Below, piece by piece: positions 26,159 to 38,728 of a stretch of DNA of 38,728 nucleotides. The notes beneath the pieces were generated by a model. The model was not told where the DNA came from and did not search any database. It was given only the letters and a program-made list of their open reading frames with translations. The position numbers were made by a program, and so were the translations under genes. Source of the DNA: a virus (lineage: Duplodnaviria > Heunggongvirae > Uroviricota > Caudoviricetes); the IMG/VR virus record IMGVR_UViG_648231705_000004. The stretch is one strand, 5' to 3'. Numbering within the stretch: position 1 is the stretch's first letter; the number at the start of each line of letters is the position of its first letter.

Positions 26159-28965
26159 TTGATATGTCGATCACCGCAAAATATGACAATAAAACGCGGG
26201 ATGCACTTGCCGGACAGATAAAAGGCTGGGCGCTTAAATACAATCAGTATCAGGATGAGCTGCAGGAGGCGGTGGGTTCACTCATCAGCGACAATATTGA
26301 TAATGTGTCAGATATCGGTTTTCTGATGCCGGATATTGCCCGCGCGGCAACGGCAACACGCACGTCTGCTCAGGACTGGGCAAAAGTGGCCGCAGTCTGG
26401 CAAAACTCCCTGAAAGGTGCGGCCAGAGATTTTGGTGCCGTTCAGAATATTATGGCTTATGCCGGTGACCAGGGGTCATTTGAAATCCCGGATCAGGTCA
26501 AGTGGATGCAGTCCCTGGCCCCAATGATGGCGGGTCTTGCCAGTGGAAAAGAGGCTGTTGCTGAAATCGGGGCCAGTCTCCAGATAGCAAAAATCGGTGC
26601 AGGTTCCACCGACGAAGCAGCCAATAATTTTAAAAACTTTCTTACCAAAATTTTTGCCCGCGATACTCAGAAACAGTTTGCTGATCTGGGTATTGATTTG
26701 CAGGGATCTATTGCGAGTTATAAAGCTGCGGGGATCTCTCCGATTGAAGGGATGTTGAGTGTTATAGAACGTTACCTCAATGCCAAAAGCCCCGAAGCGC
26801 TGGCCGGCTTCAAATCAGCCATGAAAATAAAGAATGATACGGCAAGAGATGAGGCACTTCAGGCTCTGGCGAAAAACTTTGGTCTGGGCGATATGTTCGC
26901 GGATATGCAGGTCATGGCATTTATCCGCCCGATGCTGGCCAACATGGACAGATATCGAGAGATCCGTGCCGGTGCTCTCAGGGCTGCGGATAACGATTTG
27001 CTTGCCAGTGCTTATGATCAGCGGCTGAAATCTCCCCTTGAAGCCACTAAAACACTTATGGTCAGCAGTCGCGATCTGGCAATTACGCTGGGCGATCAAT
27101 TAGCTCCATCTTTTATTTCTCTGACTCAGGAACTGCTCCCACTCATTCAGGGGACAAAACACTGGGTAGCGACTCACCCGCAATTTGTCAGTGGGGCTTT
27201 TAAGCTCATCAGTGCGCTCCTTGCGATTAAGATAGCGACTATTGGTCTCAAACTGGGGCTGAATCTCCTTATTTCCCCCTTTGTGAACGTCTGGAAAACT
27301 ACTGTTTTACTCCGGACCAACTGGCATCGACTGACTACCGCACTCGGAGAAGGTGGCAAATTACGCTGGCTTGTCACTGGATTCAGCCGACTGACCAGCG
27401 GAGGACTGAAACTCAGCAAAGTTCTGGCGGGCAGCCTCGTTCGCGGTTTTATGAGCGCTGCACGTGCCGTTCTCTGGATTGGGCGAGCGCTGATGATGAA
27501 TCCCATCGGTCTCGTTATCACCGCTGTCGCGACAGCAGCTTACCTTATCTACCGCAACTGGGGGGCTGTCAGTGGTTGGTTTAAACAGCGCTGGGCTGAC
27601 ATTCAGGAAGCCTTTAACGGCGGCATTGTGGGAATTGGTAAGTTGCTGATTAACTGGTCGCCGGCAGGCCTGCTCTATAAAGCCTTTGCGGCTGCGCTGA
27701 AATATTTCGGCGTTGCTCTGCCGGCAAAGTTCACCGACTTCGGTGGCCATCTTATCGACGGTCTGATTAACGGTATCAAAAGCAAATGGGGGTCGCTCAA
27801 ATCCAGTGTAACCGGAATGGGTGACAGCATCAGTAGCTGGTTTAAACAGCGCTGGGCTGACATTCAGGAAGCCTTTAACGGCGGCATTGTGGGAATTGGT
27901 AAGTTGCTGATTAACTGGTCGCCGGCAGGCCTGCTCTATAAAGCCTTTGCGGCTGCGCTGAAATATTTCGGCGTTGCTCTGCCGGCAAAGTTCACCGACT
28001 TCGGTGGCCATCTTATCGACGGTCTGATTAACGGTATCAAAAACAAATGGGGGTCGCTCAAATCCAGTGTAACCGGAATGGGTGACAGCATCAGTAGCTG
28101 GTTTAAACAGTGCTGGGCTGACATTCAGGAAGCCTTTAACGGCGGTATCGCGGGAACTGGTAAGCTGCTGATTAACTGGTCGCCGGCAGGTCTGCTCTAT
28201 AAAGCCTTTGCAGCTGCGCTGAAATATCTTGGTGTTGATCTGCCGGCAAAGTTCACCGACTTCGGTGGCCATCTTGTCGACGGTCTGATTAACGGTATCA
28301 AAAACAAATGGGAGTCGCTCAAATCCAGTGTAACCGGAATGGGCGACAGCATCAGTGGCTGGTTCAGCGAAAAGCTGGGCATTCATTCGCCGAGCCGCGT
28401 GTTTATGGGCTTTGGTGACAATATCGCGCAGGGGGCCGCCATTGGCCTGCAGCGGACCACTCCGCTTGCAGCTCTGGCCGGGCAGCGAATGGCCAGTGAA
28501 CTGCTCCCCAGAATGCCCGTGAGCATTCAGGGGCCAGAAATACGGGATAACACTTCAGGTGTTCGCTTCAGTATGCCGTTGCCCGATATCAATGGGTTTA
28601 TGTCGTCTGCTAAAAATGCGATCGGAGCCGTAATCAATAGTTTGTCTTCCATGCCCGCTATCCCGCTCTCCACCCGGGCATCGATTTTACCAGGGCAACG
28701 TCTGGCAAATGAGATGACACCGGATGTTCCCCGTATCCCCTCGCCTGAAATCATGGCTGCCGGATATTCAGGCCGTGGTGCAGCTGCAACCGGCGGTGGA
28801 ACGTCTGGTGGTATCCAGGTCAGCTTTAATCCTCAGTTTTTCCTCAATGGCAGGGAAACCACAGCGCCTGCAGGACTGACTGGTGCCCTGAATATGAGTC
28901 TGCATGAGCTGGAAAAAATGCTGGAGCGTCTGCTGGCTCAGAAACAACGTAAGGAGTACCGCTGA
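26053..28965 (+). CDS. tail tape measure protein (main body, 970 aa)
   Basis: Long helix-rich ORF between chaperone and baseplate genes; contains three tandem 87-aa repeats. Confidence 0.85.
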   Translation: MALYGQGIEAYGMAQTVYHTVSPAVQQSMSFQDKMIDMSITAKYDNKTRDALAGQIKGWALKYNQYQDELQEAVGSLISDNIDNVSDIGFLMPDIARAATATRTSAQDWAKVAAVWQNSLKGAARDFGAVQNIMAYAGDQGSFEIPDQVKWMQSLAPMMAGLASGKEAVAEIGASLQIAKIGAGSTDEAANNFKNFLTKIFARDTQKQFADLGIDLQGSIASYKAAGISPIEGMLSVIERYLNAKSPEALAGFKSAMKIKNDTARDEALQALAKNFGLGDMFADMQVMAFIRPMLANMDRYREIRAGALRAADNDLLASAYDQRLKSPLEATKTLMVSSRDLAITLGDQLAPSFISLTQELLPLIQGTKHWVATHPQFVSGAFKLISALLAIKIATIGLKLGLNLLISPFVNVWKTTVLLRTNWHRLTTALGEGGKLRWLVTGFSRLTSGGLKLSKVLAGSLVRGFMSAARAVLWIGRALMMNPIGLVITAVATAAYLIYRNWGAVSGWFKQRWADIQEAFNGGIVGIGKLLINWSPAGLLYKAFAAALKYFGVALPAKFTDFGGHLIDGLINGIKSKWGSLKSSVTGMGDSISSWFKQRWADIQEAFNGGIVGIGKLLINWSPAGLLYKAFAAALKYFGVALPAKFTDFGGHLIDGLINGIKNKWGSLKSSVTGMGDSISSWFKQCWADIQEAFNGGIAGTGKLLINWSPAGLLYKAFAAALKYLGVDLPAKFTDFGGHLVDGLINGIKNKWESLKSSVTGMGDSISGWFSEKLGIHSPSRVFMGFGDNIAQGAAIGLQRTTPLAALAGQRMASELLPRMPVSIQGPEIRDNTSGVRFSMPLPDINGFMSSAKNAIGAVINSLSSMPAIPLSTRASILPGQRLANEMTPDVPRIPSPEIMAAGYSGRGAAATGGGTSGGIQVSFNPQFFLNGRETTAPAGLTGALNMSLHELEKMLERLLAQKQRKEYR
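27577..28359. repeat. 3 x 261-bp near-identical in-frame tandem repeats inside tape measure gene
   Basis: Unit begins TGGTTTAAACAGCGCTGGGCTGACATTCAGGAAGCC at 27577, 27838 and 28099; encodes SWFKQRWADIQEAFNGGIVGIGKLLINWSPAGLLYKAFAAALKYFGVALPAKFTDFGGHLIDGLINGIK... Confidence 0.9.
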
Positions 28966-33292: not shown

Positions 33293-33863
33293 GCCATTAC
33301 AACTCCCGCCACCGCTTGAGGGTGATATCAGTCTCAGGACGCTGGGAAGACTGGCAGGACGGCTGGATAACATCGACCTGAGCGTACTGATGGTCTTTCT
33401 CGTCGATATCGTCGACAGTTCCGCGCTGCCATGGCTGGGCGAGCAGTTCTCACTGTCTGGCGATGGCTGGGAGCTGGCGGAATCGGACGATGTTCGCCGC
33501 ATGCTTATAAAAGCAGCCATCGAACTGCACCGGTATAAAGGGACGCCGTGGTCAATCCGGGAAGTTATCCGCCGTTTTGGCTTTGGTGAAGTGGATCTGA
33601 TTGAAGGCACAGGTCGTCTCAGTTACGACGGCAATCGCAGCTATAACGGACTGTTTGTTCATGGAGATGCAGCCGCCTGGGCAGTTTATCGCGTTATTCT
33701 GAAACAGCCCATTACTAACGATCAGGCCGCGATGCTGCGTCAGACGCTGGCTGCATTTGCACCGGCCCGCTGCCATCTGGCCAGCCTGGAGTATCAGTCT
33801 GTGGCCATTCGCTATAACAATACAGCCATCCATGATGGCAGTTATAACCACGGGAGCAGTTGA
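33285..33863 (+). CDS. baseplate/tail protein I-like (Mu R / P2 gpI-like)
   Basis: 192 aa; directly upstream of tail-fibre gene. Confidence 0.8.
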   Translation: MTEPLQLPPPLEGDISLRTLGRLAGRLDNIDLSVLMVFLVDIVDSSALPWLGEQFSLSGDGWELAESDDVRRMLIKAAIELHRYKGTPWSIREVIRRFGFGEVDLIEGTGRLSYDGNRSYNGLFVHGDAAAWAVYRVILKQPITNDQAAMLRQTLAAFAPARCHLASLEYQSVAIRYNNTAIHDGSYNHGSS

Positions 33864-33865
33864 TT

Positions 33866-35701
33866 ATGGGAAACCTGAATGAAACAGAAAAGTGGGAAGA
33901 AAATATCTATCAACTGGAGACATCAGATCCGGTTCTGGGTGGTGCAGACGGGATATCAAATCGAGCCCCCCGGCAACTGGCAAACAGGACGAAATGGCTG
34001 AAGAAAAAAACGGAGGAAGCCGCACAGTCACTGGCTGAACACGTACGTTCCCGTAACCACCCGGACGCGACACTGACAGCTAAGGGGTTCACCCAACTGA
34101 GCAGTGCCACCAACAGCACCTCTGAAACGCTGGCCGCCACACCAAAAGCCGTCAAGGCTGCATACGACCTTGCAGCCGGCAAGGCGCCCGTCAGCCACAC
34201 TCACCCGTGGAGTCAGATAACGGGAGTGCCTGCTGCCTCGCTGACGGCAAAAGGCACCGTACAACTGAGCAGTGCCATCAACAGCACGTCTGAAATACTG
34301 GCCGCCACACCGAAGGCGGTCAAGGCTGCATACGACCTTGCAGCCGGCAAGGCGCCCGTCAGCCACACTCACCCGTGGAGTCAGATAACGGGAGTGCCTG
34401 CTGCCTCGCTGACGGCAAAAGGCACCGTACAACTGAGCAGCGCCATCAACAGCACGTCTGAAACGCTGGCCGCCACACCGAAAGCGGTCAAGGCTGCATA
34501 CGACCTGGCAGCCGGCAAGGCGCCTGCCAGCCACACTCACCCGTGGAGTCAGATAACGGGAGTGCCTGCGGCTTCACTGACGGCAAAAGGCACCGTACAA
34601 CTGAGCAGCGCCACGGACAGTCAATCAGAAACTGAGGCTGCCACGCCGAAGGCGGTCAAGGCTGCATACGACCTTGCAGCCGGCAAGGCGCCCGTCAGCC
34701 ACACTCACCCGTGGAGTCAGATAACGGGAGTGCCTGCTGCCTCGCTGACGGCAAAAGGCACCGTACAACTGAGCAGTGCCATCAACAGCACGTCTGAAAT
34801 ACTGGCCGCCACACCGAAAGCGGTCAAGGCTGCATACGATCTGGCAGCCGGCAAGGCGCCCGTCAGCCACACTCACCCGTGGAGTCAGATAACGGGAGTG
34901 CCTGCTGCCTCGCTGACGGCAAAAGGCACCGTACAACTGAGCAGTGCCATCAACAGCACGTCTGAAATACTGGCCGCCACACCGAAAGCGGTCAAGGCTG
35001 CATACGATCTGGCAAACGGAAAACAACCGGCAGATGCCACGCTCACTGCTCTGGCAGGACTTGCCACTGCAGCAGATCGGTTGCCTTATTTTACCGGAGC
35101 AGACCGCGCAGCGCTGGCAACCCTTACAGCTATTGGTCGCGCTATTATCGCTAAGGGCAGTATAAAAGATGTCCTCAATTACCTTGGTTTGGGGGAAGGC
35201 TCTGCATTGCCTGTTGGTGTACCGGTTCCGTGGCCCACCGCCACACCGCCAGAAGGCTGGTTAAAGTGCGACGGGCGCGCCTTTACAAAAGAACAATATC
35301 CTGTTCTGGCCAGAGCCTACCCGACCCTCCGTCTTCCCGATTTACGCGGTGAGTTTATCCGTGGATGGGACGACGGGCGCAAAGTTGATACAGGACGTAA
35401 GTTGCTGTCCGCACAAGGGGCAACGCTGTTAAGAACAGCAATGCTGGATTATTATAACCAGGACACTACGGGAACCTCGGGGATAGTCGGCATGGGATTC
35501 AACAATGAAGATTCCATTACAGACCTTCGTGAGGGCAGCTTTAAAATGCCGGACGGGACAACATTCAGCGATCCTGTCATAGCAATGTCAGACAATGGTA
35601 TGCAGGCTACTATTCTGACCTCTATCAGAAGCGGGTATGCGAAGGGTATCACTGTCAGACCCCGTAGCATTGCACTTAATTACATTGTGAGGGCAGTTTA
35701 A
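33866..35701 (+). CDS. tail fibre protein (constant part + currently attached variable C-terminus)
   Basis: ORF 33860..35701 (ATG 33866, GGGAG RBS); six tandem 56-aa repeats with ...SSAINSTSE..AATPKAVKAAYDLA... fibre-repeat signature; the inverted-repeat crossover lies inside the gene at ~35185. Confidence 0.85.
   Translation: MGNLNETEKWEENIYQLETSDPVLGGADGISNRAPRQLANRTKWLKKKTEEAAQSLAEHVRSRNHPDATLTAKGFTQLSSATNSTSETLAATPKAVKAAYDLAAGKAPVSHTHPWSQITGVPAASLTAKGTVQLSSAINSTSEILAATPKAVKAAYDLAAGKAPVSHTHPWSQITGVPAASLTAKGTVQLSSAINSTSETLAATPKAVKAAYDLAAGKAPASHTHPWSQITGVPAASLTAKGTVQLSSATDSQSETEAATPKAVKAAYDLAAGKAPVSHTHPWSQITGVPAASLTAKGTVQLSSAINSTSEILAATPKAVKAAYDLAAGKAPVSHTHPWSQITGVPAASLTAKGTVQLSSAINSTSEILAATPKAVKAAYDLANGKQPADATLTALAGLATAADRLPYFTGADRAALATLTAIGRAIIAKGSIKDVLNYLGLGEGSALPVGVPVPWPTATPPEGWLKCDGRAFTKEQYPVLARAYPTLRLPDLRGEFIRGWDDGRKVDTGRKLLSAQGATLLRTAMLDYYNQDTTGTSGIVGMGFNNEDSITDLREGSFKMPDGTTFSDPVIAMSDNGMQATILTSIRSGYAKGITVRPRSIALNYIVRAV
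34073..35040. repeat. 6 x 168-bp in-frame tandem repeats in tail-fibre gene
   Basis: CTGACGGCAAAAGGCACCGTACAACTGAGC recurs at 34241, 34409, 34577, 34745 and 34913, with a degenerate first copy at 34073. Confidence 0.85.
35172..35197. promoter_or_regulatory. candidate left recombination (gix/pix-like) crossover site
   Basis: TCCTCAATTACC TT GGTTTGGGGGAA: 12-2-12 layout; inner half-site resembles the Gin/Hin-family half-site TTATCCAAAACC (as reverse complement). Confidence 0.45.
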
Positions 35702-36315
35702 TGAGTAACACTGCAGTTCTGGATGAAAACGGTATCGCCACTGTAGCGGGCGATATCACTGTATATCACTATGACGAGGAAACCCGGGAATACACCTCAT
35801 CCTCTGTGGAGTATCTCGCCCTTGGGGTGGGTACTCCGGCACATTCGTGCGCCGATGCACCGCCGGAGGCAATTTCGGGTTACGTGGTTTGCCGGACTGC
35901 CACGCTGAACGGGTGGGAGCATGTGCCTGATCACCGCGGCGAGACGGTATACAGCACGGAGAACGGTAACCCCGTTCTGATTACCCAACCGGGTGATTAC
36001 CCGGCGGACACCACCACAAAACAGCCAGCCACGCCATGGGATACCTGGAACGGTGAGGCGTGGGTAACCGATACTGAACGGCAGCGAACCGCAGAACTGG
36101 AGGTTGCCAGACAGCAACGCCAGCAACGGGTGAAACAGGCGATGGCGTCCGTCGATCTTATCAACCTCAAACTGCGTGCTGGTCGCAGTCTGACACCAGA
36201 AGAAACGGCAAAACTGAACGCCGTGCTGGATTATATCGACGAGCTGAACGCACTGGATATCAGCACGGCACCTGAAATCAGCTGGCCGGAAGCACCACTG
36301 GCACTTGCCAGTTGA
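35701..36315 (+). CDS. tail fibre assembly protein (chaperone)
   Basis: 204 aa; ATG overlaps fibre stop (TAATG); inside invertible segment. Confidence 0.8.
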   Translation: MSNTAVLDENGIATVAGDITVYHYDEETREYTSSSVEYLALGVGTPAHSCADAPPEAISGYVVCRTATLNGWEHVPDHRGETVYSTENGNPVLITQPGDYPADTTTKQPATPWDTWNGEAWVTDTERQRTAELEVARQQRQQRVKQAMASVDLINLKLRAGRSLTPEETAKLNAVLDYIDELNALDISTAPEISWPEAPLALAS

Positions 36316-36321
36316 ACGGTA

Positions 36322-36783
36322 TCACGCCGCCCTCACGATATAGTTAAATGCGATATTGCGGGGGCGAGCTGATACATAAGCCCACCAGTCATATCTTTGT
36401 GCACCTTTAGAGGATGCATCAAATATCCACTTTTTGCCATTTATGACCCCCAGTTGATTAGAGGTTAAAGCGTCACCAAATCCGTATTGTGTAGAGCCGA
36501 GCGAACTGATATCTCCGGTATTATTATCATCAAAACCGGATACGATAGTCCCTTCCTGAAATGAAAGTACCGTACGCCCGGTATCAACCTTGCGACCACC
36601 GTCCCATCCACGGATAAACTCACCGCGCAAATCGGGAAGACGGAGGGTCGGGTAGACTCTGGCCAGAACAGGATATTGTTCTTTGGTGAACGTAGCTCCG
36701 TTGCACTGTAACCAGCCTGCTGGCGGTGTGGCGGTGGGCCATGGAACCGGTACACCAACAGGCAATGCAGAGCCTTCCCCCAA
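36322..36783 (-). CDS. alternative tail-fibre C-terminal variable segment (promoterless; expressed only after inversion)
   Basis: N-terminal ~60 aa nearly identical to residues ~449-510 of the plus-strand fibre (GEGSALPVGVPVPWPTATPP...LRLPDLRGEFIRGWD); both variants end in NYIVRA. Confidence 0.65.
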   Translation of the reverse strand: MGEGSALPVGVPVPWPTATPPAGWLQCNGATFTKEQYPVLARVYPTLRLPDLRGEFIRGWDGGRKVDTGRTVLSFQEGTIVSGFDDNNTGDISSLGSTQYGFGDALTSNQLGVINGKKWIFDASSKGAQRYDWWAYVSARPRNIAFNYIVRAA

Positions 36784-36788
36784 ACCAA
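36573..36788. repeat. right inverted repeat of invertible segment (pairs with 35185..35400)
   Basis: Reverse complement aligns with 35185..35400 at roughly 88% identity by eye. Confidence 0.75.
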
Positions 36789-36800
36789 CGTTTATCTCTC
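36775..36800. promoter_or_regulatory. candidate right recombination (gix/pix-like) crossover site
   Basis: TTCCCCCAAACC AA CGTTTATCTCTC: inner half identical to the left site in inverted orientation; coordinates +/- 2 bp. Confidence 0.45.
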
Positions 36801-36854
36801 AAATCCTCCCCACATTATCTCAGTACTTTAACCACTCAAAAGGGAGTATTTTTA

Positions 36855-37427
36855 ATGCTGATTGGCTACATACGTGTGTCAACAAATGACCAAAACACAG
36901 ATTTGCAACGCAATGCATTAATGTGCGCAGGATGTGAACAGATTTTTGAGGACAAAATGAGCGGAACCAAGTCGGAACGACCAGGCCTGAAACGCGCTTT
37001 AAAGTGCCTTAAAAGAGGGGATACATTGGTGGTCTGGAAGCTGGATCGGTTGGGTAGAAGAATGAAACACCTCATTGCTCTCACAGAAGAGCTACGCGCA
37101 AAAGGTGTCAATTTTCGCAGTCTGACGGATTCAATCGATACCAGCACTCCGATGGGAAGGTTCTTTTTTCATATGATGGGTGCACTGGCAGAAATGGAGC
37201 GTGAACTGATAGTTGAGCGCACGCTGGCAGGACTGGCTGCTGCGCGAGCACAAGGGAGAGTTGGAGGACGTCGCCCGAAACTGACGAAGGAGCAGCATGA
37301 GCAGATCGCAAGATTGCTCCAGAAAGGGTATGACAGAAAGCGGCTGGCAATTATCTATGATATTGGACTGTCAACGATCTACCGCTACCACCCTGTTGGG
37401 ACTGTCATAACGCAACCTGAAATGTAA
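36855..37427 (+). CDS. serine-recombinase DNA invertase (Gin/Pin/Hin/Cin family)
   Basis: N-terminus MLIGYIRVSTNDQNTDLQRNAL with catalytic Ser; C-terminal HTH; ATG is codon 44 of ORF 36726..37427. Confidence 0.9.
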   Translation: MLIGYIRVSTNDQNTDLQRNALMCAGCEQIFEDKMSGTKSERPGLKRALKCLKRGDTLVVWKLDRLGRRMKHLIALTEELRAKGVNFRSLTDSIDTSTPMGRFFFHMMGALAEMERELIVERTLAGLAAARAQGRVGGRRPKLTKEQHEQIARLLQKGYDRKRLAIIYDIGLSTIYRYHPVGTVITQPEM

Positions 37428-37454
37428 TTCTTTTTCAAATAATGAAACGCCGCG

Positions 37455-37508
37455 TGGATGCCATTTATCGCACAAGATAGAGTGCATTTATCGCGCGGCG
37501 CATCAACA
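37455..37508. repeat. candidate transposase-binding terminal repeats at prophage right end
   Basis: Two direct copies of CATTTATCGC (about 37462 and 37486) just before the phage/host junction. Confidence 0.35.
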
Positions 37509-37549
37509 AATTTACCGCCGAACGCGCAGGCAAACAGTCGCTGGATGAT

Positions 37550-38728
37550 TTGATGAACAGTTCGCTGTATCTGATGCGCAGCGAATTGCGTGAGATCCCC
37601 CCACACGACTGGGGTAAGACGCTGAAAGAGATGGATTTAAATCTCTCTTTCGATCTGCGTGTCGAGCCACTGAGTAAATACCATCTTGATGATATTTCCA
37701 TGCACCGGCTGCGTGGCGGCGAAATTGTCGCTCTGGACGATCAGTACACTTTTTTGCAACGTATCCCGCGCAGCCACTACGTGCTGGCAGTTGGTCCTGT
37801 TCCTTATCTTTATTACCTCCATCAGATGCGATTGCTGGATATCGCCCTGATCGCTTTTATTGCCATTTCCCTCGCCTTTCCGGTGTTTATCTGGATGCGT
37901 CCGCACTGGCAGGATATGTTAAAACTGGAAGCAGCGGCGCAACGATTTGGCGATGGGCATCTCAGTGAGCGTATCCACTTTGATGAAGGTTCGAGCTTTG
38001 AACGACTTGGCGTCGCATTTAACCAGATGGCGGACAATATCAACGCCTTGATTGCCAGCAAAAAACAGCTTATTGACGGTATCGCTCACGAACTGCGAAC
38101 ACCGTTAGTGCGCCTGCGTTATCGACTGGAGATGAGCGATAACCTGAGCGCCGCCGAATCCCAGGCGTTGAATCGCGATATCAGTCAACTTGAAGCTTTA
38201 ATCGAAGAGCTGCTGACTTATGCCCGACTCGACCGCCCACAAAATGAGCTTCATCTTAGCGAACCAGACCTGCCGTTGTGGCTGTCAACGCATCTGGCAG
38301 ATATTCAGGCAGTAACGCCCGATAAAACGGTACGGATAAAAACGCTCGCGCAAGGCCATTATGCGGCGTTGGATATGCGCTTAATGGAGCGCGTGCTGGA
38401 TAATTTGCTCAATAACGCCCTGCGCTACTGTCACTCAACGGTTGAAACCAGCCTGCTACTGTCGGGGAATAGAGCGACATTAATTGTTGAGGATGATGGC
38501 CCAGGGATTGCCCCAGAAAACCGCGAACATATCTTTGAACCTTTTGTTCGCCTCGATCCCAGCCGGGATCGCTCAACCGGCGGCTGCGGGCTGGGGCTGG
38601 CAATTGTCCACTCTATAGCACTGGCAATGGGCGGTACGGTTAATTGTGACACCAGCGAACTGGGTGGTGCCCGCTTCTCGTTCAGCTGGCCGTTATGGCA
38701 TAACATCCCGCAATTTACCTCTGCCTGA
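37550..38728 (+). CDS. rstB: sensor histidine kinase RstB, 5'-truncated fragment (gene interrupted by the prophage)
   Basis: From memory, matches E. coli RstB from about residue 30 onward (KFTAERAGKQSLDDLMNSSLYLMRSELREIPPHDWGK...); HisKA box HELRTPL and ATP-binding G-box GGCGLGLAIV present; no RstB N-terminus upstream. Host-derived sequence starts at ~37508. Confidence 0.9.
   Translation: MMNSSLYLMRSELREIPPHDWGKTLKEMDLNLSFDLRVEPLSKYHLDDISMHRLRGGEIVALDDQYTFLQRIPRSHYVLAVGPVPYLYYLHQMRLLDIALIAFIAISLAFPVFIWMRPHWQDMLKLEAAAQRFGDGHLSERIHFDEGSSFERLGVAFNQMADNINALIASKKQLIDGIAHELRTPLVRLRYRLEMSDNLSAAESQALNRDISQLEALIEELLTYARLDRPQNELHLSEPDLPLWLSTHLADIQAVTPDKTVRIKTLAQGHYAALDMRLMERVLDNLLNNALRYCHSTVETSLLLSGNRATLIVEDDGPGIAPENREHIFEPFVRLDPSRDRSTGGCGLGLAIVHSIALAMGGTVNCDTSELGGARFSFSWPLWHNIPQFTSA

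Follow-up and report, generated by a model that had tools for sequence, protein, structure and literature searches.

The window (the whole 38,728-nt stretch analysed, from a tailed virus of the Caudoviricetes) almost certainly contains an active site-specific inversion system that swaps the tip of a tail fibre while carrying only one gene for a tail-fibre assembly chaperone (tfa). As a whole, we consider it reasonably likely that this is an active Gin/Min-type (Din family) switch with a generalist Tfa that is dispensable for some tips. The invertase would act on two 26-bp sites in inverted orientation, with exchange at the 2-bp core of each, thereby flipping the segment between them, and the constant fibre shaft would be fused to tip cassette A or, after the flip, to cassette B. 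Tfa would recognise the collar/C-terminal strand common to both cassettes, serving any tip, and in the B state, with tfa antisense, B fibres would assemble without a Tfa of their own. Coordinates of all features are collected in Table 1.

Table 1. Features of the invertible tail-fibre region and its surroundings (positions in the window).
Feature	Position	Strand	Details
Tail-fibre gene S, present orientation	33866..35701	+	611 aa; ORF list, Pfam
Left 26-bp crossover site, gix/hix-like	35172..35197		TCCTCAATTACC TT GGTTTGGGGGAA; core TT 35184-35185
Inverted repeat, left arm	35181-35409	+	encodes shared collar domain of tip A
Invertible segment	35184..36788		1,605 bp; in-silico flip compared with E. 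coli 83972
Cassette A	35186..35701	+	~72-aa collar, ~87-aa variable tip, conserved C-terminal strand RPRSIALNYIVRAV
Tail-fibre assembly chaperone U/Tfa	35701..36315	+	204 aa; start overlaps cassette A stop (TAATG)
Cassette B, promoterless alternative collar and tip	36322..36788	-	153-154 aa; ORF 36322-36783/36786
Inverted repeat, right arm	36563-36791	-	encodes collar domain of tip B
Right 26-bp crossover site	36775..36800		TTCCCCCAAACC AA CGTTTATCTCTC; core AA 36787-36788
Gin/Pin/Min-type serine DNA invertase	36855..37427	+	190 aa
Right end of transposable prophage	37440..37501		...GATAAATG repeats ...GCGCATCA; then duplicated target ACAAAT and 3' part of host rstB

Inversion, crossover sites and invertase

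The segment had been predicted to be invertible, and a flipped copy is indeed present in RefSeq E. coli 83972 (NZ_CP058220.1), where the identical insertion in rstB is occupied by the same prophage. In blastn, window positions 35181-36788 aligned to this genome in inverted orientation between collinear flanks, at ~99-100% identity overall and with a few mismatches attributable to extension into the repeat arms, and flipping 35184-36788 in silico gave 100.0% identity over 2,011 nt. The flip joins the constant fibre part to the minus-strand tip with the frame kept, and the RefSeq annotation of 83972 accordingly contains a 594-aa S-B fusion (WP_235692394.1) with tfa on the opposite strand, which is the antisense position foreseen for the chaperone after inversion. 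The original prediction had also weighed the case in which only one orientation is ever seen; both occur, not only in this pair but among complete E. coli records generally (~389 oriented as in the window, 376 flipped), and a single inversion of 2,047 bp distinguishes the related isolates Esc1 and Esc11 at the aroA-serC locus that they share. A phase-variable prophage disrupting rstB is thereby documented in E. coli 83972, which is used to colonise the bladder deliberately. Flipping of a Mu prophage locus and of a P2-like prophage locus with three repeats and four variants has been detected by PCR and sequencing in EPEC cultures (Goldberg 2014, PMC4272514).

The inverted copies first described as ~215 bp of imperfect repeat (35185..35400 and 36573..36788) are the same feature as the aligned arms, which are 229 nt long and 89% complementary; the repeat has this length because the arms encode the shared collar domain. 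Complementarity is 100% over 35184-35229, with the first interior mismatch at 35230 and identity on the outside ending at 35183. The 26-bp Hin/Gin-type sites proposed to straddle the outer edges were recovered in inverted orientation, with identical inner halves, outer halves that differ and are degenerate, and complementary cores (TT/AA). The window contains exactly two copies of the 18-nt motif comprising the core and the inner half, where chance alone would give 0.03, and the inner half GGTTTGGGGGAA matches its counterpart GGTTTACAGGAA in Mu gixL (TTATCCAAAACC TC GGTTTACAGGAA) at 9/12 positions. With its two crossover sites the window has two states only and no multiple-inversion (Min/shufflon-like) array; more than two sites occur in close relatives (FORC_031, AR_0086, L087-L105).

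The product of the invertase gene matches Pfam Resolvase (E 8.2e-51) and HTH_7 (E 1.3e-12) as well as PHROG 125 'DNA invertase', keeps MLIGYIRVSTNDQ, corresponding to the GYxRVST motif that holds the active-site Ser in this family, is 76% identical in amino acid sequence to Mu Gin over 181 aa, and is identical to WP_000904922.1, a protein present in many genomes. Din-family systems rely on a recombinational enhancer in cis to which Fis binds, as a rule near the 5' end of the invertase gene. Over its first 388 nt the gene shares 74% identity with Mu gin, and both genes have, at ORF positions 94 and 140, two AT-rich G-N13-C motifs that match the Fis consensus only loosely.

That the flip was made by RecA-mediated homologous recombination between the 229-bp repeats, rather than by the invertase at the 26-bp sites, is very improbable. 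A repeat of this length and 89% identity would suffice for occasional homologous exchange, and the collar of cassette A in AR_0086, a mosaic of both arm types, suggests some gene conversion. However, between the two assemblies of the same prophage (the window and RefSeq 83972) each of the 25 arm mismatches stays with its cassette, which confines the exchange to 35184-35229, the outermost 46 identical bases, which include the core. Moreover, an intact Gin homologue adjoins the segment, the junctions in three-cassette relatives coincide with the same motif, the outer half of which overlaps the stop codon of the neighbouring cassette, and the near 1:1 ratio of the orientations in genomes fits frequent enzymatic switching.

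As to the element that carries the switch, junction analysis placed the TGAT...ATCA prophage ends inside rstB, flanked by ATTTGT direct repeats. The annotation of the identical prophage in 83972 lists a DDE transposase, a B-like ATPase, a Mor-type activator and an early operon divergent from the late one, and the early, lysis, head and tail gene sets of the window prophage are complete by annotation. To judge from gene content and ends, the prophage is a BcepMu-like transposable phage (Bcepmuvirus) that has inserted into rstB in the lineage of E. coli 83972. A related phage, PhiKM, is filed under Bcepmuvirus.

Two tip cassettes and a single chaperone gene

Gene S, whose start at 33866 agrees with the RefSeq start, encodes in order a constant N-terminal part, six 56-aa Phage_fiber_2 repeats, a collar domain and tip A (Pfam Phage_fiber_2, E 3.6e-108; Collar, E 1.3e-15). 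The two alternative fibre C-termini originally claimed correspond to Collar ORFs on both strands: cassettes A and B each match Pfam Collar (PF07484), and they share their N-terminal 72 aa and C-terminal 12 aa in alignment. Cassette A, which belongs to PHROG 523 'tail collar fiber protein', matched the T4 gp37 tip 2XGF with an E value of 2.3e-14 in a phmmer search of PDB sequences, and the match includes the terminal NIAFNYIVR motif. Going by these alignments, each cassette is predicted to be a T4-gp37-like collar into which a variable, putatively receptor-binding tip of 70-87 aa is inserted, followed by a conserved C-terminal strand.

The minus-strand ORF might have been a degenerate remnant, as the original prediction had allowed, but it is intact in hundreds of genomes and, measured against diverged copies from different array contexts, shows a dN/dS of 0.11-0.15 at a dS of 0.35-0.45. 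By this estimate, cassette B is under purifying selection. Copies of B within window-type arrays differ from one another at 1-3 positions, all of them non-synonymous and none synonymous.

The chaperone matches Pfam Caudo_TAP (PF02413) over residues 79-199 (E 5.5e-28) and PHROG 105 'tail fiber assembly' over its full length (E 4.7e-88), and a search of PDB sequences with Tfa gave no meaningful match. It had been claimed to be the only assembly gene of the segment, and this extends to the whole 38.7-kb window, where a search for a second tfa found none and only one Caudo_TAP gene is present. The gene is physically tied to cassette A and lies tail-to-tail with cassette B, as described before, although the gap between the two stops is 6 bp and not 7. 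Because crossover sites flank A-tfa-B but do not occur within it, expression of cassette B always comes with tfa antisense.

This layout is the two-cassette end of a widespread series of relatives in which one tfa accompanies 2 to at least 9 tip cassettes. The module occurs on at least three unrelated backbones (Bcepmu-like, P2/P88-like and E. coli phage-plasmids of ~90-97 kb), and E. coli genomes that have it contain a median of three matching places. The cassette upstream of tfa varies between arrays (clusters 4, 5, 6, 8 and 17). The one-chaperone asymmetry is a family trait.

Chaperone specificity and fibres without Tfa

Several comparisons indicate that Tfa is probably a class-wide generalist for collar-type tips. 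A full-length match to the U-type profile was found in 140 Tfa ORFs, and all but one of these (139/140) directly follow a collar cassette, as against none of the 55 that match in the conserved C-domain only. Across 63 tip clusters, mean pairwise identity was 72% for the collar and 88% for the last 12 aa but 24% for the tip, and reached 48% for the N-domain of Tfa compared with 40% for its C-domain. It is the N-domain that binds the fibre in Mu Tfa and in Pam3 gp25 (PMC9608196). The fibre-binding domain of Tfa thus tracks the shared collar and not the variable tip, and since the N-domain is conserved whatever the tip, Tfa most likely recognises the conserved collar or the C-terminal strand. A generalist Tfa would explain its single copy in arrays of 2 to at least 9 cassettes. 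Lambda Tfa, a Caudo_TAP protein, can replace gp38 in the assembly of T4 gp37, so action of a Tfa on heterologous collar-type tips has a precedent.

Some collar fibres are expressed in the apparent absence of a chaperone gene: 19 of 113 have no tfa within 3 kb, the sheath gene coming directly next in 11, and tips of cluster 0 occur with tfa in ten cases and without it in five. A B-type tip (74% identical) stands without any tfa in a P2-like prophage of Rahnella laticis (L071). We considered whether tip B belongs to an intrinsically chaperone-free family and rejected this, since tfa follows another B-type tip (L093, 77% identical) and also accompanies a C-type tip (L073), which argues that the tip families are not chaperone-free by nature. 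The low dN/dS of B, the single tfa of the prophage and the tfa-less invertible segment L107 point towards assembly without a chaperone, and on balance we lean towards B-tipped fibres forming without the phage's own Tfa. Tfa would then assist at least some collar-type tips without being essential to them. Between the two ways out named in the original prediction, the genomic comparison favours an alternative fibre that would need no chaperone over one that would use a chaperone encoded elsewhere. Against this, T4 gp37, a collar-type tip of solved structure, requires gp38 or lambda Tfa. Together with gp57A, gp38 is described as a T4 fibre chaperone (PMC9608196).

An unlikely alternative, but one with some points in its favour, is that all tips including B need a chaperone, which would be made from an unrecognised promoter, moving with the A-tfa module or firing into it from outside, or from the U-type tfa of co-resident prophages. 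The conserved N-domain implies that Tfa could bind any collar cassette, B- and C-type tips elsewhere do adjoin U-type tfa (the L093 and L073 loci above), and with three module matches in the median E. coli genome a paralogous tfa is often present. Against this, no sigma-70-like promoter was found on either strand in 33700-37600 by a consensus scan, a method that can miss weak or activator-dependent promoters; the variation in the cassette upstream of tfa makes a conserved internal promoter unlikely, and nothing but the prophage end and host DNA follows gin on the right. Reliance on other prophages, moreover, would break down after infection of a new host, and Tfa-less collar fibres are known in P2-like prophages. 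The lack of a second chaperone could also be read as decay, with B-state fibres defective and the layout a former Mu-G-like segment minus U', tolerated in a prophage that seldom or never yields phage. Collar/collar segments of symmetric build, each with two tfa genes, do exist (L041, L076, L027, L065, L098), making the loss of one a plausible origin, the differences between window-type B copies are non-synonymous only, and the fibre gene is truncated in some relatives, the ST131 aroA-serC prophage among them. Nonetheless, we regard decay as improbable because the layout has expanded to many cassettes, growth to at least nine with one tfa looking like gain, and recurs on three or more unrelated phage backbones; the intactness of B and its low dN/dS, together with the complete early, lysis, head and tail genes of the window prophage, also speak against it.

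For arrays of n cassettes with one tfa, a further and rather improbable idea is that inversion toggles both the fused tip and the production of the chaperone. Tfa of the Mu type stays attached to the tip of the finished fibre and takes part in receptor binding. Were Tfa so retained on the tip, a third cassette, which can lie in the same direction as tfa or against it ([X A U B'] and [X B U' A']), would yield two fibres that differ in function. Tfa, if the idea is true, would be a cap that fits any standard collar socket and can be switched on or off, making the system a natural plug-and-play platform for exchanging receptor-binding tips.

The preferred reading, of a generalist Tfa that some tips can do without, bears on how fibre chaperones are seen, which is usually as cognate partners that must accompany every receptor-binding tip, a constraint on engineering the host range of phages and tailocins. 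The module described here is natural and very common, being present in hundreds of E. coli genomes and on three kinds of backbone; with one chaperone gene it shuffles between 2 and at least 9 unrelated tips on a single conserved collar scaffold, and for at least one of them expression never coincides with that of tfa. If the chaperone is both generalist and dispensable, the collar scaffold would be a ready-made chassis for tip swapping, and the system offers a clean genetic test of what Tfa proteins recognise.

Comparison with known inversion systems

The switch is most likely of a kind already known. As in Mu G/Gin (and also P1 C/Cin and e14 P/Pin), a Gin-like invertase is encoded immediately downstream of the segment, the 26-bp imperfectly palindromic sites with their 2-bp core lie inside the fibre gene, the C-terminus is swapped, and a Caudo_TAP chaperone follows the expressed tip. 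The Mu segment, however, measures 3 kb with 34-bp repeats, compared with 1.6 kb and 229-bp repeats here, and contains two tip-chaperone pairs (Sv-U and Sv'-U') rather than one chaperone; the tips here are collar-type (T4 gp37-like) and not Mu S-like, and BLAST shows no similarity between U and Mu U.

In p15B Min and the P2-like locus of EPEC E2348/69, as here, a Din-family invertase joins a constant fibre part to alternative 3' ends. p15B Min reportedly holds six variants in ~3.5 kb, so that one tfa at most would fit. Unlike these loci, the window is limited to two sites and two states, and the four-state logic of EPEC E2348/69 (Goldberg 2014, PMC4272514) is that of the close relatives with 3 to at least 9 cassettes; the chaperone problem is not discussed in that paper.

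T4 gp37 has the collar domain and the terminal NIAFNYIVR strand (2XGF) in common with the cassettes, but it forms a long needle where they have a short inserted tip, normally requires its chaperone, and belongs to a phage in which no such inversion is known. A precedent for alternative tips without paired chaperones is carotovoricin Er, a tailocin in which a Din-type invertase acting on 26-bp repeats is said to swap fibre C-termini and with them the target range; its invertible fragment is reportedly 790 bp long and has no chaperone gene. L107, an invertible two-cassette segment without tfa, is its analogue among the loci compared, and beside these two the window represents an intermediate form with two cassettes and one tfa.

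The invertible segment and its two orientations

A segment with two alternative fibre ends and a single assembly gene, as proposed by the original prediction, was borne out by the gene layout, the recombination sites and an in silico flip. The inverted repeat is present but is 229 nt long, not ~215 nt (89% complementary, arms 35181–35409 and 36563–36791, by repeat search and alignment), and the gap between the minus-strand ORF and tfa exists but measures 6 bp rather than 7. Arm complementarity is perfect over 35184–35229, with interior mismatches beginning at 35230 and similarity reaching its outer limit at 35183. The two 26-bp sites have identical inner and different outer halves, and the 38.7-kb window has exactly two occurrences of the 18-nt motif of core plus inner half, versus 0.03 expected. 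Segment and entire window alike contain one tfa, the tail-fibre assembly chaperone gene.

Features of the tail-fibre inversion region
Feature	Coordinates	Strand	Remarks
Tail-fibre gene	33866–35701	+	six Phage_fiber_2 repeats and Collar domain
Left 26-bp site	35172–35197		TCCTCAATTACC-TT-GGTTTGGGGGAA; outer edge of left arm
Caudo_TAP assembly gene (tfa)	35701–36315	+	own ATG overlaps fibre stop
Collar ORF (tip B)	end at 36322	-	intact; 6 bp between its end and tfa stop
Right 26-bp site	36775–36800		TTCCCCCAAACC-AA-CGTTTATCTCTC; outer edge of right arm
Serine invertase	36855–37427	+	

Flipping 35184–36788 in silico placed the minus-strand ORF behind the fibre shaft in the same reading frame, and the product matched the RefSeq chromosome of E. 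coli 83972, with the same prophage and rstB junction, at 100.0% across 2,011 nt. In the 83972 record the annotated fibre is 594 aa long and terminates in tip B, tfa and tip A lying on the other strand; as anticipated, the ORF is intact with its frame open through the crossover, and inversion leaves the chaperone antisense. In blastn of the window against 83972, 35181–36788 is inverted and the flanks are collinear (~99–100% identity), and the few flank mismatches can be put down to the alignment running on into the repeat arms. Complete E. coli genomes also hold both orientations, window-type in 389 records and flipped in 376. In Esc1 and Esc11, both from one isolate series, a related three-cassette segment at the same aroA–serC locus is found in opposite orientations, a single inversion of 2,047 bp separating them. 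Goldberg et al. (2014; PMC4272514) demonstrated by experiment that such loci flip in EPEC cultures, one in a Mu prophage and one in a P2-like prophage that has three repeats, four variants and a choice of three C-termini.

The invertase shares 76% identity with Mu Gin, the sites are similar to gixL and gixR, and two Fis-like motifs, loose matches at ORF positions corresponding to those in Mu gin, may form a putative enhancer. Since all 25 arm mismatches remain with their own cassette between the window and 83972, exchange occurred inside 35184–35229, which includes the core dinucleotide. Such confinement is predicted by site-specific recombination, not by general homologous exchange, and makes flipping by RecA-mediated recombination highly improbable. 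As an active tail-fibre phase-variation switch, the element is very common, and the interpretation originally advanced for it is supported.

A 168-bp (56-aa) unit is repeated 5.5 times in tandem, at 92% identity, in the fibre shaft (34094–35014), matching the six Phage_fiber_2 repeats; because fibre lengths differ between close relatives (594, 611 and 643 aa), shaft length may vary through repeat number.

Prophage backbones and related arrays

The operon layout, the ends and direct repeat in rstB, and the classification of the related isolated phage PhiKM as a Bcepmuvirus identify the element as a BcepMu-like transposable prophage with its right end at ~37501. It is nearly complete in the window and identical in 83972 (NZ_CP058220.1), where the early operon (DDE transposase, B-like ATPase, Gam, Mor) diverges from the late one (lysis, head, P2-like tail, baseplate); in the window, the early transposase operon runs leftward and the late operon rightward. 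The ends, TGAT...ATCA, carry repeated GATAAATG motifs, with an ATTTGT direct repeat on both flanks (junction 37440–37507). Insertion is inside the sensor-kinase gene rstB, which is therefore inactivated, and is the same in 83972, an asymptomatic-bacteriuria strain. The tape-measure gene includes three tandem copies of a 261-bp unit in exact register (27569–28364, 96% identical), which could be an origin of tail-length variation.

The fibre module is also found, with little change, in a P2/P88-like prophage next to aroA and on ~90–97-kb phage-plasmids, among them pB2C_96, whose Tfa (WP_000072167.1) and invertase (WP_000904922.1) are identical to those of the window. As A-tfa-B-(X)-invertase, where X is an additional cassette, it is ~98% identical across Bcepmu-like, P2/P88-like (ST131-type strains) and phage-plasmid backbones (copies compared: pB2C_96, L170 3925–8876, and the aroA–serC prophage, L001/L168); in the ~96-kb phage-plasmids it is joined to a 928-aa fibre. 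This identity on three unrelated backbones means that the module moves horizontally, with the junction within the fibre gene. In the ST131-type aroA–serC prophage (L001 2579–3628, L168 2079–3128), RefSeq calls the expressed fibre gene a pseudogene with its N-terminus missing and, given the inversion between related isolates, inversion thus goes on in an apparently defective prophage. The identical invertase WP_000904922.1 (99.4% nucleotide identity to 36750–37430) also lies in the R64-type pilV shufflon region of the conjugative IncI-gamma/K1 plasmid pNDM5_LS003 (L171, NZ_OP290546.1, 3164–4179), adjoining 'prepilin, shufflon protein A', with pilO–pilV apparently absent. This may reflect recombination between fibre-inversion module and shufflon or an assembly artefact; a PilV–tail-collar fusion provides a comparison case (PMC9881135).

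Profiles for collar, Tfa and invertase were applied to 160 related loci drawn from GTDB genomes and IMG/VR. A Mu G-like layout with two collar cassettes and two tfa was found in L041, L076, L027, L065 and L098. A single tfa accompanies two cassettes in the window, three in FORC_031 and AR_0086, and up to at least 9 in L089; L099, with seven cassettes and two tfa, is an exception, and L107 has two cassettes and zero tfa. The one-chaperone asymmetry is therefore real and a family trait. In three-cassette forms every cassette has its site at the 5' end only, and only four states can be reached: [A U B' X'], [B U' A' X'], [X A U B'] and [X B U' A'] (U, tfa; prime, reversed unit), three of which were seen directly. 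Because the A-tfa-B unit has sites solely at its ends, B is never co-oriented with tfa in any array. The duplicated block of L099 (3701–7773), with two identical tfa and repeated cassettes, and the single array of at least nine cassettes in L089 (297–5742) suggest array growth via duplication and cassette capture.

Collar-type fibre ends and a single chaperone

Cassettes A, B and C (the third of FORC_031) share their first ~72 aa, the repeat-encoded Collar domain, and last ~12 aa (RPRNIAFNYIVRAA), and the middle 70–87 aa are completely different in alignment. Cassette A matches the T4 gp37 tip structure 2XGF in the collar and the terminal NIAFNYIVR strand. The gp37 chain exits the collar, builds the receptor-binding part and comes back to the collar, so that each cassette would be a standard collar 'socket' carrying an inserted variable tip. 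The repeats are long because they code for the shared domain, and imperfect because each arm is part of its own cassette. Arm mismatches are concentrated in one stretch (35253–35287 versus 36685–36719; KCDGRAF versus QCNGATF), and cassette A of AR_0086 (L001 3669–4148) is a mosaic of both arm types, suggesting that the collar repeats occasionally undergo gene conversion with each other.

Mu Tfa and gp25 of cyanophage Pam3 bind the fibre end through a variable N-domain and trimerise through a conserved helical C-terminal domain (PMC9608196). Full-length matches to the window-type Tfa profile directly follow a collar cassette in 139 of 140 ORFs, versus none of the 55 matching the C-domain alone, whose partners are non-collar fibre ends. 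In pairwise comparisons across 63 tip clusters with linked Tfa, identity averages 72% in the collar, 88% over the final 12 residues and a noise-level 24% in the tip, with 48% and 40% for the Tfa N- and C-domains. By these counts and identities, what the fibre-binding domain tracks is the conserved collar and C-terminal end rather than the tip. We infer that the window-type lineage acts as a generalist on collar-type ends, which would make one copy per cassette unnecessary.

Tip-B fibres can be produced only from genomes with tfa antisense, and how they assemble in that state is inferred. We somewhat favour a Tfa that is helpful but dispensable, B assembling without it: tfa is missing within 3 kb of 19 of 113 expressed collar fibres (a tail-sheath gene being directly next in 11), one being a Rahnella laticis P2-like prophage fibre with a B-type tip (74% identical), and tfa presence varies inside single tip families (cluster 0: 10 with, 5 without). 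Tfa supplied independently of orientation or in trans would also serve B, but seems unlikely: there is no second tfa in the whole window and no consensus promoter on either strand of 33700–37600, and only the prophage end lies right of the invertase. That B-state fibres are defective, or that the layout decayed from a Mu-G-like ancestor, is more doubtful still; hundreds of genomes carry an intact tip B, and array-embedded B tips show dN/dS of 0.11–0.15 at dS 0.35–0.45. A simple rule by which tip type decides the need for tfa is countered by the U-type tfa following both the B-type tip of L093 (77% identical) and the C-type tip of L073. The one-chaperone layout points to a collar-class Tfa that is both generalist and dispensable.

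Relation to known switches

The practical relevance lies in tip-swapping in phage and tailocin engineering. The switch is of an already known kind, its one-chaperone layout being the variant. It works as Mu G/Gin does, and recombinase, sites and observed inversion place it in the Din family; lacking the two-chaperone feature, it does not count as a symmetric segment of the Mu-G type. Its relatives are multiple-inversion arrays of the sort seen in p15B Min and at the four-variant EPEC locus. In the literature examined, we found no discussion of the one-chaperone problem and, as far as we found, the layout is a variant without earlier analysis. A precedent is carotovoricin Er, whose alternative tips reportedly lie on an invertible fragment without a chaperone.
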